From UHGV virus genome UHGV-0112358: DNA of 41,688 nt; one strand, written 5' to 3'. Positions 7,367 to 36,241 of the stretch are shown piece by piece. Below the pieces are notes generated by a model that searched no databases, was not told the origin of the DNA, and worked only from the letters and a program-made list of their open reading frames with translations. A program made the position numbers and the translations under genes. Source of the DNA: a virus. The first letter of the stretch is position 1, and the number at the start of each line of letters is the position of its first letter.

Positions 7367-8026
7367 TTAACTAAATGTCTCTTCAGGCCACTGGCTGGCG
7401 ATAACTTTCCCTACTACGGAACAGCTATCATTGCATGGGATCATTGGATATTGCGGGTTTAGTGGTTGTAGGAACACCTGACCGCTATCCCTGATCAGTT
7501 TCTTGAAGGTAAACTCGTCACCACCAAGTCTGGCTATGCAGAAATCACCTGGCTCAACAGCCTGCTCAGGGTCAACGAGAATTAACATCCCGTCAGGAAA
7601 GCTTGGCTTGGATCCTGTTGGTGCGGTCATGGAATTACCTTCAACTTCAAGCCAAAACGCACAATCACTGGCTTTTTTGGTTGTGCTGACCCATCTCTCC
7701 GCATCGCCTTTGGTAAAGGTTCTAAGCTCAGGCGAGAACATCCCGGCCTGAACATGAGAAAAAACAGGGTACTCATATTGTTTTTTAACGGGGGCAGATG
7801 AGTATTCGCCAACAGGTGAAAATGTACCGTCGTGGTTGAATGAGACGTTATCAATACCAAGGTATTTAAACACCACACCAATCTCGTCAAGAGATGGATG
7901 ACGAGATCCGCGCAACCAGTGACCAATTCCACCCTGCGTCATACCAAGCTCTTCAGCTAACTTCTCTTGAGTTATGCCGAGCTCTTTCATTCTGGATCTA
8001 GCCAGTTCATACCATTTCATTTTCAT
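7367..8026 (-). CDS. cI: CI-type prophage repressor (HTH N-terminus, lambda-like S24 C-terminal domain)
   Basis: C-terminal half near-identical to recalled lambda CI ([15 protein letters not shown]...GNSM...ASQWPEETF); N-terminal HTH differs; start MKMKW at 8026, track ORF extends to 8101. Confidence 0.9.
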
Positions 8027-29932: not shown

Positions 29933-30147
29933 AGTACCCGTTCATGGAGGAGGAGACTCTTCCGGCAAAACTCGTTAGCCCCGTAAACGTCACACCATCA
30001 ATGAACGCCATTATCTGTTCAGGAAAAGCCACTTATACCGATTTGCAGGAAAGGTTATCTGTTCGTGATATGTATAACCTTCTGGAAATTATCTCGGTGG
30101 AATCATTTAACAAGCGGGTCTGGAATAAACATCAGGAGCAGCGATGA
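29929..30147 (+). CDS. tail chaperone -1 frameshift extension (T-like)
   Basis: Frame is -1 relative to chaperone and open from slippery site 29908-29914; no independent RBS. Confidence 0.55.
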   Translation: MKYPFMEEETLPAKLVSPVNVTPSMNAIICSGKATYTDLQERLSVRDMYNLLEIISVESFNKRVWNKHQEQR

Positions 30148-31919
30148 TTATCAATGAGTTGGCCTACAAGGTCACAATTAAGGCCGATGAATTCCTGAAT
30201 GGAAAACGGAAAGTAAAGCAGGAAGCACAAGACCTTAAAAACGAAATAGAGAGATCTTCATCTGCGATAGAAAGGTCAACAACCTCCTCGATGTCCAAAA
30301 CGGCTAAGGAGACCGACAAAGCTGCTGTTGCAATGAAAGGGTTGACTGCTTCATTTAATGGTTTTTTGGGGCTTTCGACACGCTTTGTGGCTGTTGGCGG
30401 TGTGTTGACTGCCGTAGCCATTGGCATTCATCGTGCATTTGAAAGTACTTCGGAGTCAATTGTAAGAGCCAGTAATATGGGGAGAATGCTTGGAACAAGC
30501 GCCAGTAACGTTCTTGGTACTCAGTATGGATTCTCCCGAATTGGTCAGAACGGCGGCGCGTTCCTTGGGGCACAGATGAGCGCCAGGATGGCGCTTGCCA
30601 ATATAGAAGACCCAACAATTTTCGGCGGACTTACACCGGAGGCTCAGAATTTACTAACAACTGGAGCGAGAACAGGCATTGATATTAGTAAGCTTGGAGG
30701 TAAATCAGAAGATGCTCTGGCGGAATTTCAGAAATATGGGAAGAACCATAACGAGAAACAGTTAATGCAAGTGCTTTCTGCTTTTGGTTATGACCCTAAT
30801 CTTGCCGGGGATATTAAAAGCGGAAAAGCTGTGCAGATGGTATCTGAGGAAGAAAAACGATGGCAGATGACCAAAGAGCAGGAAGAAGCACAGCGCAACA
30901 TTCTTGCTACGACTAAAGCCCTTGACTCGCAATTTGCTCAGGTTAAACAAGAATTAATGGCTACATTTGGCCCTGAAGTGCTTAAAGCTGAACAGGAGTT
31001 TTTAGAGTGGCTGAAAAACAACAAGGGTGACATTGTTGGGTTCTTCAGGAACCTGAGTACAGGTATTGATGGTTTTGTTAAAGCCGTTGGTGGCGCTGGA
31101 AACGCATTGGGCATTCTTGCTGCCATGGCTCTTCTTAGCGGCAAGGGGTTAGGAAGCAAGCTGGGATTAATCGGTGCTGTTGGTATTTTTGGGCAGATGG
31201 TACAAGACCAGTATAAAGATGTTCCTGATGAGATGCGGCCATTCGCATTTCAGCAGCATTGGCTTGAAAGGCTCATTGGGCTGGATTATGACGATCCAAA
31301 TAAAGAGATTCCTCCTAACAAAAATGGTGTCAACAGGCCTGACAGAAACAATAACCCATTAAATCTTAAAGCTACTGGAAACAGAAGAAGAGACAAAGAC
31401 GGATTTGCTCAATACTTCGACCCAGAAGAGGGTTGGGAGGCCGCCAGGAATCAACTGACTCTATACTACAAAAGAGATAAGCTTGATACGTTGCAAGGAA
31501 TAATAAGCAAGTGGGCACCATCCTCAGAAAACAACACAAAGGCGTATATTGACCAGGTTTCTAAGTCTATGGGCGTTGGTGCCAATGATAAGCTAAACCT
31601 CTCAGATCCAGAGGTTATGGCAAAACTTAGCGCCTATATGGCTAGGCATGAAGGTTATCCAGATTGGAAGCGGGGTCTTGATTATGGTAACCCAACGAAA
31701 AATAGCAATGCCGCTTACTACCAAACTCAGCAAAGATTGGCTAATGGATCTGCAAATCAATCCTATACCCAAAGCGTTGTTAACAATTACAACAGCCAGC
31801 ACATAGGAGAGGTAAAGGTAATTGCCAAAACGGATCAATCCTCAAAACTAACCGAAGGATTTAAGGAGTTGAATCGCAGATCATCAGTAAATCAGGCATT
31901 TTCAAGTGCAGTGCCTTAG
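30144..31919 (+). CDS. tail tape measure protein
   Basis: 591 aa with hydrophobic and Gly-rich segments, follows chaperone pair. Confidence 0.65.
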   Translation: MIINELAYKVTIKADEFLNGKRKVKQEAQDLKNEIERSSSAIERSTTSSMSKTAKETDKAAVAMKGLTASFNGFLGLSTRFVAVGGVLTAVAIGIHRAFESTSESIVRASNMGRMLGTSASNVLGTQYGFSRIGQNGGAFLGAQMSARMALANIEDPTIFGGLTPEAQNLLTTGARTGIDISKLGGKSEDALAEFQKYGKNHNEKQLMQVLSAFGYDPNLAGDIKSGKAVQMVSEEEKRWQMTKEQEEAQRNILATTKALDSQFAQVKQELMATFGPEVLKAEQEFLEWLKNNKGDIVGFFRNLSTGIDGFVKAVGGAGNALGILAAMALLSGKGLGSKLGLIGAVGIFGQMVQDQYKDVPDEMRPFAFQQHWLERLIGLDYDDPNKEIPPNKNGVNRPDRNNNPLNLKATGNRRRDKDGFAQYFDPEEGWEAARNQLTLYYKRDKLDTLQGIISKWAPSSENNTKAYIDQVSKSMGVGANDKLNLSDPEVMAKLSAYMARHEGYPDWKRGLDYGNPTKNSNAAYYQTQQRLANGSANQSYTQSVVNNYNSQHIGEVKVIAKTDQSSKLTEGFKELNRRSSVNQAFSSAVP

Positions 31920-32386: not shown

Positions 32387-32502
32387 TCTTTCCCCTTGTA
32401 ACGTTTCCTATGTTTGTATCCGTTAACTTAAGCAAAAGCACGCAACACTCGGTTTTACGCAGGATACCAGATGATACTGTGTAGTTGGAGTAGTGCGGTT
32501 GC

Positions 32503-32594
32503 AATGCAAGCATTTTGCTTTTGTTTTATGCTTGCTTGTATGTGGGTACAGTGCATATAATGCAAGCATATATCACAGCAAAGGTGCTTGCATT
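32503..32594. promoter_or_regulatory. operator array (4 copies of AATGCAAGCAT) over a consensus promoter
   Basis: Copies at 32503-32514, 32528-32535, 32559-32570, 32585-32594 in alternating orientation; -35 TTGCTT (32532-32537), -10 TATAAT (32556-32561). Confidence 0.5.
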
Positions 32595-33587
32595 ATGACT
32601 GAAAAGAAAAGTGGTGAAGGGAAAGCTAAGGGCGGAATCGCTCGCGCAAAGTCGCTGACTAAAGAGCAGCGTTCTGAAATAGCAAAGAAAGCAGCGGCTG
32701 CAAGATGGAAGGATAAACCATTAATTGCTACGCATAAGGGATCGTTCCAGCATGAATTCGGGATTGATGTTGAGTGCTATGTGTTAAATGATGATAACAA
32801 AACTGCCGTTATTAGCCAGAGAGGCATGGGAGAAGCGATTGGTCTTGGCGAAGGTGGCAGCAGGTTGCCAAAGTTTATTCAGGGGAAAACTATTTCTCAG
32901 TATATCGGGCATGAATTAAGGGCAAAACTTGAAAATCCTCTTATTTTTCAATACAAACAGGTGGGCACGAACACACCAGCTAACCCTGTAATACATGGCT
33001 ACGATGTAACAATCTTAATTGATTTATGTCGAGCAATCTCTAACGCTAAAGCTGAAGGTAAGTTGCTTTCTAGTCAGGAAGGGATTGCTAAGCAAGCCAG
33101 GATAATTATTGATGCATCAGCCAAGGCGGGAATTCAGGGGCTTGTTTATGCTTTGGCAGGGTATGACAGAACAAAAGAAGAAGTAATTCAAGCATATAAG
33201 CGATATGTTGCTGAAGAGGCTCGTGAGTATGAAAGAGAGTTCACCCCTGAACTTTATGAGCATTGGTATCGTCTGTATGGTATAGACAAACCAGTTAGAG
33301 GGCGACCGTGGGCGTTTAAATATCTTACGATAGATCACATTTACTACCCATTAGCCAGAAGTGAAGGAAAGGTATTTAATTTAGCAAAAACGTCAAAAGA
33401 AGAGAAAGGCAGCAAAAACGATAAAATACACCAGTTTTTATCAGAGGTTGGAGTTAAAGCTCTTAGAACCCAAATAGGTAAGGTTACTGGTATTGCAATG
33501 GTTTCTGATACTCGAGAAGAGTATGAGAAATACATAGATGAAAAGGTTATTGGACAAAGAACCATCGACTTAAAAGATAAAGAATAA
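32595..33587 (+). CDS. KGG-motif / P63C-like protein of unknown function
   Basis: ATG 32595 after SD; N-terminus GKAKGGIARAKSLTKEQRSEIAKKAAAARW; track ORF starts upstream at 32493. Confidence 0.55.
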   Translation: MTEKKSGEGKAKGGIARAKSLTKEQRSEIAKKAAAARWKDKPLIATHKGSFQHEFGIDVECYVLNDDNKTAVISQRGMGEAIGLGEGGSRLPKFIQGKTISQYIGHELRAKLENPLIFQYKQVGTNTPANPVIHGYDVTILIDLCRAISNAKAEGKLLSSQEGIAKQARIIIDASAKAGIQGLVYALAGYDRTKEEVIQAYKRYVAEEAREYEREFTPELYEHWYRLYGIDKPVRGRPWAFKYLTIDHIYYPLARSEGKVFNLAKTSKEEKGSKNDKIHQFLSEVGVKALRTQIGKVTGIAMVSDTREEYEKYIDEKVIGQRTIDLKDKE

Positions 33588-33616
33588 GAAAAACCCACCG
33601 TCAGGTGGGTTTTTTG
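33588..33616. terminator. bidirectional terminator between convergent genes
   Basis: A-run, ACCCACC-gtca-GGTGGGT, T-run. Confidence 0.6.
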
Positions 33617-33921
33617 TTTAGCAGTTCTCTTAACTTTTCGTTTTGCTCTCTGAACTTTTCCTGTATTTCTTTTTGCATGGCGATAACCTGGGCTTGAAGT
33701 TGAACTAGCGCATCAACATTTAGCGGAACCGAGACGCTGTTGATTTTGTCTGCTATTTCCCCAAGAGTATTTTCTGCATTCAAGGCATCTTCCAGTATCT
33801 GCACAATCTCTGAGTTCATTGATCTGCCGTTACGTTTAGCTCGTTCAGCTATAGCATCTCGCATTCCGTCAGGAAAACGGAGGTTGAACTTGTCGTAGTC
33901 TTTTACTTGTTTTTCGGCCAT
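33601..33921 (-). CDS. mnt: Mnt/Arc-type ribbon-helix-helix repressor
   Basis: KFNLRFPDGMRDAIAERAKRNGRSMNSEIVQ RHH motif; divergent from arc-ant pair; track ORF extends to 33960. Confidence 0.6.
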   Translation of the reverse strand: MAEKQVKDYDKFNLRFPDGMRDAIAERAKRNGRSMNSEIVQILEDALNAENTLGEIADKINSVSVPLNVDALVQLQAQVIAMQKEIQEKFREQNEKLRELLNKKPT

Positions 33922-33939
33922 TGCAAATCTCTCAAAAAA

Positions 33940-34012
33940 ACCATGGTGCCATATTGCCATACGATTTCAATGGTGGCATTATGGCCTTCATGGCGTCACT
34001 TTGGCACCAAAT
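33940..34012. promoter_or_regulatory. divergent promoter/operator region of immI-like switch
   Basis: Inverted half-sites GGTGCCA / TGGCACC repeated between the mnt-like and arc-like starts. Confidence 0.4.
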
Positions 34013-34027
34013 AAAGGAGATTAGATA

Positions 34028-34201
34028 ATGCAAGATACACTTTTCACTGAGCGCAAAAATATCAAACTCAACCTTCGCCTTCCATCACGGCTGAATGAAG
34101 ACCTTCGCCGCCTGGCGGAAATGGACTGTATATCTCTGAACTCTGCAATTGTTCGTTTGCTGGCAAAAGGTGTTAGGGAAGAGGTGGCGAATGGTCGCTA
34201 A
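34028..34201 (+). CDS. arc: Arc-like ribbon-helix-helix repressor (57 aa)
   Basis: [36 protein letters not shown] motif; SD AAAGGAG; below track cutoff. Confidence 0.6.
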
Positions 34202-35207
34202 AAACAGCGAAGCCCCAATGGCTGCAACCATTGAGGCTTCTAAATTACCAGTTAACTACGAGAAAACTGATATGAATAGTATAGCAATTTTAGAAGCAGT
34301 GAACACCTCTTACGTACCCTTCAACGGTCAGCAAATTATCACCGCCATGGCTGCAGGAGTTGCATATGTTGCGATGAAGCCAATCGTTGAAAACCTCGGA
34401 ATGAGCTGGGGTACTCAGCAACAAAAACTTATGAAACAACTAGATAAGTTCAACTGTATTCATATGAATATGGTTGCTGCTGATGGGAAGCTTCGTAAGC
34501 TACTCTGCCTTCCTTTGAAGAAGTTAAATGGATGGCTGTTCAGCATCAACCCTGAGAAAGTTCGTGCTGACATCCGCGATAAACTGATTCAGTACCAGGA
34601 AGAATGCTTTACTGTGCTGCATGACTACTGGACTAAAGGCCATGTGGTTAACCCGCGCAAAGCTAAAAAGGCGTTGCCGGGCAAAATCACCACTGAACAG
34701 CAGGAAGCCATTAAACAACTTGTCATGAGTCGCGGTCAGTCTCTGCCAAAAGAAAAACAGGCGAAGGCGATGATCACCATGTGGTCGTCACTGAAATCCC
34801 ATTTTGGATGTTCGTACAAAGAAATCAGTGAGGAGCAGTTTACCGAAGCACTGTCACTTGCAGCTCGAGTTCCACTTGAAGGTGAGTTCATTAGCAAACA
34901 AGAGAAGAGCACCAACGAGCTTTCCGCAAAAGAAGCAAACAGCCTTGTATGGTTATGGGATTATGCCAACCGCTCACAGGCATTATTCCGCGAACTGTAT
35001 CCGGCATTAAAACAAATTCAATCGAACTATTCCGGCAGATGCTACGACTACGGTCATGAGTTCTCGTATGTTATCGGAACGGCGAGAGACGTTTTAATCA
35101 ACCACACACGAGATGTTGATATCAATGAGCCAGACGGACCAACAAATCTTTCTGCATGGATAAGGCTTAAGAATAAAGAATTACCGCCTTCTGTTCATCT
35201 GTATTAA
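34191..35207 (+). CDS. ant: antirepressor (Ant-like, AntA N-terminal domain)
   Basis: [23 protein letters not shown]... resembles recalled P22 Ant; ATG 34191 with SD GAGGTGG overlapping arc end. Confidence 0.65.
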
Positions 35208-35291
35208 TGACGCATCTGGTGGTGAAAAAAAACCGCCAGTGTGCAGCTGGCGGCCTATGTCACACCCTTACTACCACATAAGGAATGCCTA

Positions 35292-36020
35292 ATGACTTTT
35301 AAGAATGTAGCAAACATCGGATCCGTTGTCACGGATAAAACCATTGATAGCCAGTACCTGTTAGAGATGGTCAATCATGCTCGTAGACAGTGCGGGGAAA
35401 AAGAAGTCCGCAATAACGACTTTATTGCACGCATTAAGGATGAACTTGAAGGTGAGCACTACGAAATTTTCGTAGTTCAAAAATCAAACAAGACAACTTC
35501 TGAAAAAGTTGTTATGTCAATTAAGCAAGCCCTTCGAGTGGCTGCTCGTGAATCTAAAGCTGTTCGCCGCTCACTTGTAGACCAACTTGAAAGTATGCAA
35601 GAAGCGCACATTAAAAGCGGTAAATCGTCTAGTGGACTTGTTGAGTATCGCCAGGCGCGAACATTGAAAATGACGGTTGAAGCTGTTACCAATCTGTTCG
35701 ATTTGATGCCAAATCTTGCGCCGGAAGCAAAGCAGACTGCGGCAGCAAGCATAATCAACCCGATCGTTGGTTTTAATGCAATACCTCTTCCAGCAATAGA
35801 AGAGCATTACTACTCAGCAGGGGAGGTTGCAGAGCAGCTTGGAGTAACGGCCAACAAGATTGGTCGCATTGCTAACGCAAACAACCTCAAAACTGAGCAG
35901 TACGGGAAGTTCTTCCTGGATAAATCTGCGCATTCCAGCAAACAGGTGGAAGCATTCCGCTACAATGCGGAAGGTGTTAAAGCACTACAACACCTGGTTC
36001 ATGGGAGTAATGTTGCATAA
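35292..36020 (+). CDS. hypothetical DNA-binding protein (possible antirepressor-like)
   Basis: ATG 35292 with SD AAGGA; HTH-like segment near C-terminus; track ORF starts 35241. Confidence 0.45.
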   Translation: MTFKNVANIGSVVTDKTIDSQYLLEMVNHARRQCGEKEVRNNDFIARIKDELEGEHYEIFVVQKSNKTTSEKVVMSIKQALRVAARESKAVRRSLVDQLESMQEAHIKSGKSSSGLVEYRQARTLKMTVEAVTNLFDLMPNLAPEAKQTAAASIINPIVGFNAIPLPAIEEHYYSAGEVAEQLGVTANKIGRIANANNLKTEQYGKFFLDKSAHSSKQVEAFRYNAEGVKALQHLVHGSNVA

Positions 36021-36241
36021 TGGCAAAGAAAAAATATGGCATTATGCCGCCAAGAATCAAAGGAAGAGCCAGGGTAAAAGGCGATGCTGGGAGATATCAC
36101 ATTCTTGGTGTTTTGTGGCATGAGAGAGCTTTAATTTTAAGCAGACCTCATGGGTACATTGAAAAGGTATCTATAGATAGAATTGAGATTCTTCCCCTTA
36201 CTCCTGAAGAAGAAGAAACGTACGGACTTTTTGATAACTAG
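36020..36241 (+). CDS. hypothetical protein (73 aa)
   Basis: ATG overlaps upstream stop; basic N-terminus. Confidence 0.4.
   Translation: MAKKKYGIMPPRIKGRARVKGDAGRYHILGVLWHERALILSRPHGYIEKVSIDRIEILPLTPEEEETYGLFDN

Follow-up and report, generated by a model that had tools for sequence, protein, structure and literature searches.

Identification of a probable P22 immI-type antirepressor switch

We analyzed the virus genome UHGV-0112358, a stretch of 41,688 nucleotides (nt) that is referred to here as the window, and found that positions 33601-35207 very probably represent an intact homologue of the immunity-I (immI) antirepressor switch of phage P22, inserted as a mobile cassette in a tail-gene operon. 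The elements visible in the letters are divergently arranged mnt-like and arc-like plus ant genes, a sar-type RNA gene, three operator-like boxes and an antirepressor (Ant) of the P22 type. Together with the adjoining hairpin, the segment 33589-35207 contains five features: a terminator, a leftward open reading frame (ORF), a 106-bp divergent control region (33922-34027), an ORF of 57 amino acids (aa) and a long rightward ORF. Coordinates are collected in Table 1.

An earlier note on this DNA had proposed an arrangement as in P22 immI, with two ribbon-helix-helix (RHH) genes, one Mnt-like and leftward, the other Arc-like (57 aa) and rightward, and an antirepressor gene. All three genes were found where it had placed them, and the proposed arrangement was borne out by the homology of all three proteins to P22 components as well as by a gene order and orientation identical to those of P22. 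The sar-like RNA, which was absent from that note, and the mnt terminator of P22 are also conserved here. The P22 immI switch has been textbook material since the 1980s; the kind of system is already known, pieces of the cassette are annotated piecemeal in databases, and our finding leaves the knowledge of the P22 system itself unchanged. What was read from the sequence is the anatomy of the switch, whereas all of its binding and regulatory steps are proposed by analogy with P22.

Table 1. Coordinates of the features of the immI-type cassette in the window
Feature	Position	Strand	Description and basis
Bidirectional hairpin terminator	33589-33614	both	Predicted to end the mnt-like gene (minus) and the upstream P63C gene (plus); terminator scan
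Mnt-like maintenance repressor gene	33601-33921	minus	106 aa; N-terminal RHH domain; beta-strand KFNLRF
Operator-like box O1, CCATGGTGCCATATTGCC	33941-33958		Contains the quasi-palindrome ATGGTGCCAT; overlaps Pant -35; repeat search
Predicted promoter Pant	33954-33982	plus	-35 TTGCCA (33954-59), 17-nt spacer, extended -10 TGgCATTAT (33974-82); scan 9/12 with TG
Operator-like box O2, CAATGGTGGCATTATGGC	33968-33985		Direct repeat of O1, 27 bp apart; covers Pant -10
Operator-like box O3, TTTGGCACCAA	34000-34010		Inverted copy of O1; about +12 to +22 of Pant; overlaps candidate Pmnt -35 GTGCCA (34007-34002)
Arc-like RHH repressor gene	34028-34201	plus	57 aa; opens the rightward operon; beta-strand KLNLRL
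sar-like antisense RNA, ~70 nt	34201-34271	minus	Two hairpins; Rfam sar (sub-threshold), terminator scan, fold
Antirepressor gene ant	34272-35207	plus	311 aa from the P22-equivalent ATG; P22_AR_N and P22_AR_C
Psar-like promoter (predicted)	34278-34306	minus	-10 TATACT (reverse complement of 34278-83), -35 GTGTTC (reverse complement of 34301-06); inside the ant 5' end

Proteins encoded by the cassette

The strongest protein match was obtained for Ant, which is 68% identical to P22 Ant of the annotated P22 genome over 311 aa (E=6e-159), with an alignment that begins exactly at P22 residue 1 (MNSIAIL). Its Pfam domains are P22_AR_N (1.5e-44) and P22_AR_C (7.5e-30). The N-terminus had previously been described as AntA-type; this has to be corrected, since P22_AR_N occupies that place and the Pfam AntA model gave no match at E<=0.1. 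A sequence search of the PDB returned no relative of Ant, and none of the NCBIfam models matched Ant, the Arc-like protein, the P63C protein encoded upstream or the product of a second antirepressor-like gene downstream.

The product of the leftward gene matches Pfam Arc (PF03869, 1.4e-20) and shares 50% identity with P22 Mnt, confined to the RHH domain (P22 Mnt residues 3-44, E=6e-13), and 37% identity with Arc; the best matches in the PDB sequence search were Arc, Mnt (1mnt) and AmrZ. The ORF is open over 33601-33960 on the minus strand, which would allow a product of 119 aa from 33960. This longer version was rejected: a +A indel at 33933, found in 21 of 29 related cassettes, shifts the extension out of frame. 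Because of this indel, and because RefSeq calls a 106-aa protein in the sister prophage of Escherichia coli WS4437A-1, the start was placed at the ATG at 33921. Among 29 near-identical cassettes, changes in the gene are mostly synonymous (about 19, against 3 rare non-synonymous ones), and it is under selection. At its other end, the last codons and the stop (KKPT plus stop) lie within the stem of a terminator nearly identical to the P22 mnt terminator, a layout shared by P22 and other alleles (KKTT plus stop). The hairpin is conserved, marks the left edge of the cassette and is apparently its left recombination joint.

The Arc-like gene is preceded by a Shine-Dalgarno (SD) sequence, AAGGAG, at 34014-19. 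Its product scores 22.1 bits against Pfam Arc (gathering cut-off 20.4), is 30% identical to P22 Arc (BLASTP 7e-6) and weakly retrieves Arc variants in the PDB sequence search. Comparison of its family profile with one built from the Arc-position proteins of further immI alleles gave an hhalign probability of 96.7% (E=4.7e-10). Homologues form a family of constant length (57 aa) in E. coli, Salmonella, Citrobacter, Klebsiella, Atlantibacter and Serratia, in which K13, N15 and R17 are invariant. Against one diverged relative, 24 synonymous and 6 non-synonymous differences correspond to a ratio of non-synonymous to synonymous rates (dN/dS) of 0.047, and a second relative gave 0.076, both with synonymous sites near saturation. 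These low values indicate that the 57-aa ORF encodes a protein under selection; as far as the sequence can tell, with dN/dS at 0.05-0.08, the small ORF is not an untranslated one, which had been raised as a possibility.

Operator-like boxes and promoters of the control region

The inverted half-sites GGTGCCA (33945-51) and TGGCACC (34002-08), which had been noticed before, are real and lie inside the 106-bp divergent region, where they form an inverted repeat, I1, whose arms of 13 nt show 85% complementarity. The motif TGGTGCCA has four exact copies on both strands of the 41.7-kb window, two of which fall within this region, compared with about 0.01 exact copies expected there by our own arithmetic. 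A third copy with one mismatch, at 33971, is located between the two exact ones.

Boxes O1 and O3 are invariant in the 29 near-identical cassettes, in which positions 33942-33971 and 33995-34033 never vary and all variation is found in 33972-33994. In relatives with 74-89% identical Arc proteins, the O1 motif TGGTGCCA has become TGGGGCCA and the O3 motif TGGCACCA has become TGGCCCCA, which is a mirrored change. In addition, CAATGGTG at 33968-75 is invariant in eight diverged loci. The predicted rightward promoter Pant has the consensus -35 TTGACA in diverged relatives, and TGn followed by a -10-like hexamer (an extended -10) occurs at the same place in three alleles. For the leftward promoter Pmnt, the promoter scan gave GTGCCA-18-CATAAT (34007-33978); a second candidate has a mirror -35, TTGACA in relatives and GTGACG in the window (33999-33994), together with a poor -10. 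Predicted transcript starts are at about 33989 for Pant and at about 33964-33971 for Pmnt.

Other readings of this region were also considered. A sigma-54 promoter at TGGTGCCATATTGCCA was rejected, since its GG-to-GC spacing is one base short and the GC is missing in relatives. The best sigma-70 consensus match of the region, TTGGCA-17-GATAAT (34001-34029, 10/12 in the promoter scan), cannot serve arc because transcription would start inside arc, downstream of its ATG. Antirepressors of the Gifsy type are controlled by LexA, with a LexA box in the antirepressor promoter (PMC3121763). No match to CTGT-N8-ACAG with at most one mismatch was found in 33922-34027 or upstream of the second antirepressor-like gene, and control by LexA was rejected.

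A predicted sar-like antisense RNA

At the place that sar occupies in P22, the terminator scan detected a strong minus-strand terminator-like hairpin (34240-34209). In a search of 301 nt, the Rfam sar model (RF00262) aligned over its full length (1-68) and with both stems to 34206-34272 on the minus strand (28.6 bits, E=6.6e-4). The match was seen with permissive settings only; at gathering thresholds, Rfam gave no matches in the whole window. In the predicted RNA, which has a fold z-score of -6.8, hairpin 1 presents a loop, UUUUCUC, complementary to the ant SD region, and a U-run follows the 14-bp terminator formed by hairpin 2.

Comparison among alleles provides further evidence for this structure. 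The two-hairpin fold is common to 10 immI alleles despite their different stem sequences, and an alignment of 14 distinct sequences revealed compensatory double changes in 6 of 12 terminator-stem pairs. Moreover, the three substitutions that occur within sar in window-type cassettes all keep the structure: a G.U pair becomes A-U at 34215, an A-U pair becomes G.U at 34231, and 34257 lies in a loop. As read from the alignment, the -10 of the predicted promoter, TATACT, is that of P22 Psar and has the same position in ant, and the -35 is one base off (GTGTTA in P22).

Start codon of ant

The ant frame is open over 34149-35207. It does overlap arc, as had been described previously, but the translated gene probably begins further downstream: the most likely start of Ant is, as in P22, ATG 34272 and not the arc-overlapping ATG 34191, from which the product would have 338 aa. 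If the upstream codon were used, an 11-nt overlap would couple ant to arc, the hairpin region would be coding and sar would not gate initiation. Such a start is annotated by RefSeq in phage 2851, which has a near-identical cassette, and it could draw on the frame being open from 34149, on a strong SD, GAGGTG, located 4 nt 5' of ATG 34191, and on one related cassette (L074/L085) in which the P22-type start is changed from ATG to ATA. However, the frame is open only in this allele; in others, stops occur a few codons upstream of the P22-type start, with a TAA three codons upstream in L113 and L117. All four substitutions in the 27-codon extension are non-synonymous, versus a synonymous to non-synonymous proportion of about 19:3 in mnt (hypergeometric p ~0.002), and three of the four fall in sar, where all of them keep its structure. 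Furthermore, gene callers leave 70 nt between arc and ant both in diverged relatives and in the sister prophage, and the first residue of P22 Ant aligns with MNSIAIL of the window. Because of the stops in other alleles, the substitution pattern and the sar-preserving changes, we consider the start at ATG 34191 unlikely and think it wrong; database annotations of Ant probably carry a wrong start codon.

Proposed mechanism and alternative explanations

The P22 switch has been summarized previously (PMC11016777, PMC2629481). If the cassette works in the same way, the Mnt-like repressor would bind the boxes in a lysogen and keep Pant shut, so that no Ant is made. Upon infection or loss of Mnt, Pant would fire and give a burst of the Arc-like protein and Ant, after which the Arc-like protein would shut Pant again. 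The sar RNA would pair with the ant ribosome-binding site (GAGAAAA at 34260-66 and ATG 34272) and thereby block translation of Ant from late read-through transcripts. Ant, in turn, may bind CI/C2-type repressors non-covalently; its probable targets are the CI of the phage itself (7370-8026) and the corresponding repressors of lambdoid prophages in the same cell. Their inactivation would favour lytic growth or cross-induction.

Several observations weigh against the identification as a P22-type switch. The sar match of 28.6 bits is under the Rfam gathering score of 43 (P22 sar itself scores 97.8), the Psar -35 is weak, and the leftward promoter is poorly defined, with two weak candidates. The Mnt-like and Arc-like proteins share a K-N-R beta-strand face, and an assignment of boxes to proteins by beta-strand residues failed. 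Beyond residue 48, in its C-terminal part, the Mnt-like protein does not resemble the P22 Mnt tetramerisation domain in sequence; a single-sequence AlphaFold model shows a long helix (69-102), with low confidence (mean pLDDT, the predicted local distance difference test score, 64.5). The ATA in place of the P22-type ant start in one related cassette belongs here as well. Finally, ant is truncated in several window-type cassettes whose mnt and arc are whole (201 aa in L087, L100 and L105; 286 aa in L110; 297 aa in L106), which suggests recurrent payload loss and decay of the module in some prophages.

These truncations would also be expected if the cassette were passive, with Ant dispensable, and if the terminator, bound repressors and convergent or antisense transcription throttled read-through from the tape-measure gene to the baseplate genes. 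The cassette does lie between a tape-measure/lytic tail gene and baseplate genes on the same strand and includes a bidirectional terminator at 33589-33614, and the idea has been raised for tailspike expression in P22 (PMC2629481). Nevertheless, ant is intact here and 68-100% conserved, the complementarity between sar and the ant ribosome-binding site is kept by compensatory change, from which it follows that translation of Ant matters, and the cassette is not confined to tail operons (L097, for instance, has it in a nin region); a purely passive role is improbable. It is scarcely credible that the two RHH genes have nothing to do with antirepressor control and instead form a pair of the antitoxin, partition or HicB-like kind, as would be read from the database names of close homologues ('HicB family antitoxin', 'partition protein ATPase'), from PHROG labels and from weak Pfam HicB matches. 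The latter reach only 17.3 and 18.7 bits (gathering threshold 21), no toxin or ParA gene adjoins, the pair keeps its synteny with ant and sar from allele to allele, and both proteins are directly homologous to P22 Mnt and Arc. This interpretation is effectively already refuted by context.

Specificity alleles

The antirepressor switch of the window appears to be one of a series of specificity alleles. The P22 operators O_arc (ATGATAGAAGCACTCTACTAT) and O_mnt (GGTCCACGGTGGACC) are not conserved in it, and the two intergenic regions align without meaning; the Mnt/Arc/operator part would therefore be a different specificity allele, and the module should be heteroimmune to P22 immI.

A closer comparison was provided by the sister allele L201 of E. 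coli WS4437A-1 (NZ_CP035822.1, 39511-41080), which was compared with 33601-34272 of the window. The tail genes of this prophage are 99% identical to those of the window. Its Mnt-like protein is 97% identical, with D10E, N14V and L15V, in or beside the DNA-reading beta-strand, as the sole differences, whereas the Arc encoded there is another protein, of 53 aa and with 35% identity. Its boxes, of the CAATGATGGCAT type, occupy the same three positions: CAATGATGGCATAT is present twice as a direct repeat, 27 bp apart (17 of 18 positions agree between O1 and O2), and is accompanied by an inverted ATGCCAT. A recombination breakpoint lies inside mnt, and the Arc gene and the three boxes have been replaced in WS4437A-1. 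The pair of alleles is, on this comparison, a putative natural specificity swap, in which beta-strand residues and boxes change together. The natural allele series offers a ready system for studying the evolution of RHH specificity.

Comparison with known systems

With P22 immI, the cassette shares the gene order and orientation, the RHH nature of both regulators, the mnt terminator, the two-hairpin sar, the location of Psar inside ant and a position in the late operon adjoining tail genes. Unlike P22, it has three boxes of the ATGGTGsCAT type, with a sequence unrelated to P22 O_arc and O_mnt; a 106-aa Mnt-like protein (83 aa in P22) with an unrelated C-terminal domain; a 57-aa Arc-like protein with only 30% identity; and a sar too diverged for the Rfam threshold. 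Moreover, its host is a contractile-tail phage and not a P22-like podovirus.

In P22-like phages such as epsilon34, ST64T and others, the 'ant moron' is a variable, independently regulated insert of the late operon, often composed of ant plus mnt, arc and sar (PMC2629481). The high turnover of alleles and gene content is the same here, but the window-type cassette is found beyond the gene 16-tailspike gap, namely between L and K of siphoviruses, in three myovirus baseplate contexts and in the nin region. Shiga toxin (Stx) lambdoid phages (2851, YYZ-2008, 1717) and O157 prophages have the same allele with 94% nucleotide identity, located between tail genes and with Arc-like and Ant proteins annotated; they differ in the ant 5' end (77% Ant variants) and in their flanks, the lambda-like L and K. 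The mnt-like gene is not annotated in the record of Stx phage 2851 (NC_049943), and it is omitted from some phage records.

An ImmI region with Ant, Mnt and Arc has also been stated for Edwardsiella phage Edno5, resting on annotation alone (PMC6372524). Edno5 is among the closest sequenced relatives of the tail module of the window, and the likeness of its ImmI is taken from the statement in that paper. The c4 RNA of P1/P7, with ant, forms an RNA-gated antirepressor system. N15 and P22 have been cited together as RNA-gated antirepressors (PMC10732415). In both P1/P7 c4-ant and N15 CA RNA-antA, as proposed for the window, a small antisense or processed RNA blocks antirepressor synthesis; however, the proteins and RNAs are unrelated to those of the window, and there is no RHH pair.

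Mobility and distribution of the cassette

Similarity to other genomes extends from ~33594, at the mnt terminator, to ~35191-35198, just before the ant stop, which defines the edges of the cassette. With a 2-kb query, some part was matched in 1215 of 5426 complete E. coli genomes, at 1-6 places each, and the best 20 matches cover mnt, arc and ant at 94-98.5%. Stx phages 2851, YYZ-2008 and 1717 carry the cassette between the lambda-like tail genes L and K. The allele is thus very common in E. coli, including Shiga-toxin phages, and since antirepressors can cross-induce prophages, it bears on induction and toxin release.

At least seven different left flanks were recorded for the window-type allele in IMG/VR, which include 19 loci of the siphovirus L|K type, myovirus baseplate regions of three kinds, the nin region (L097) and the window's own type. 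Among 80 viral contigs that encode Ant, the Mnt/Arc part exists in many unrelated alleles joined to 75-100% identical Ant proteins. The cassette is a mobile 'ant moron', and this behaviour is extended here beyond P22-like phages to other tail types.

We tentatively propose, with somewhat less than even confidence, that mnt-arc-sar is a portable control cassette, of which specificity, payload and insertion site are exchanged independently, and that the second gene downstream may be gated by its own undescribed sar-like RNA, so that two RNA-gated antirepressors would stand in tandem. The sites of the portable cassette comprise podovirus, siphovirus and myovirus tail operons and the nin region. 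In L119 (3001-4640) and L120 (3001-4650), an arc-like gene (89% identical) and a sar-like hairpin precede Bro-N and ORF6N genes and not Ant; L119 is a relative of the phage in the window and has its insert at the same tail-operon site.

The host phage and its neighbouring genes

The host is a temperate contractile-tail phage (myovirus), a hybrid prophage of E. coli, with tail sheath and baseplate genes. The cassette has the orientation of the tail genes on either side, with the tape-measure/lytic tail protein gene (30144-31919) before it and a Dit-like baseplate gene after it; the baseplate genes occupy 36292 onward. The early region is lambdoid, with a CI-type S24 repressor (7370-8026, 37% identical to P22 C2), Cro-like and CII-like genes, O/DnaC-like replication genes and NinB. 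This phage was found in only 20 of the 5426 complete E. coli genomes. The nearest sequenced phages are Edwardsiella Edno5 and GF-2, with 68-69% nucleotide identity in the tail module. An IMG/VR contig (3300029567_000333) is 100% identical over the compared stretch 33560-34330, and its Ant and second-gene proteins are identical to those of the window.

Upstream of the P63C-domain gene (ATG 32595), a promoter-like TTGCTT-18-TATAAT was observed, with TATAAT at 32556-61. Its spacer holds a LexA-box-like sequence, TTGTATGTGGGTACAG (32536-51, one mismatch), at a frequency expected by chance genome-wide, and four copies of GCAAGCA/TGCTTGC are present near this promoter (32500-32600 of the window).

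A second antirepressor-like gene downstream

The second antirepressor-like gene (35292-36020) encodes 242 aa assigned to PHROG 1726 ('anti-repressor') and is followed by a 73-aa gene (PHROG 4977), the pair spanning 35292-36241. In the P22-like phage JEP4, the ant-moron region includes a 'KilA' and hypothetical protein pair with 89% identity to the pair of the window. L110, a related phage whose immI cassette occupies the same site, lacks the pair, which is therefore regarded as a separate insertion. Pfam detected no domain in the product of the second gene, and a relationship with the ORF6N gene seen after Bro-N in L119 was rejected (BLASTP E=0.025, no real similarity).

A second sar-like layout is present on the minus strand at 35222-35332, for which Rfam contains no family. 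It consists of a promoter-like GTGACA-17-TACATT (35332-35304) in the 5' end of the second gene and a strong minus-strand terminator (35256-35230) with a U-run upstream of this gene. The predicted RNA of ~76 nt (~35297 to ~35222) would be antisense to the SD (35280-85) and ATG (35292) of the second gene. Its covariation is weak. Across 31 distinct homologue sequences, with protein identity as low as 69%, the two hexamers, the 17-nt distance between them and the terminator are retained, whereas the spacer differs in sequence.

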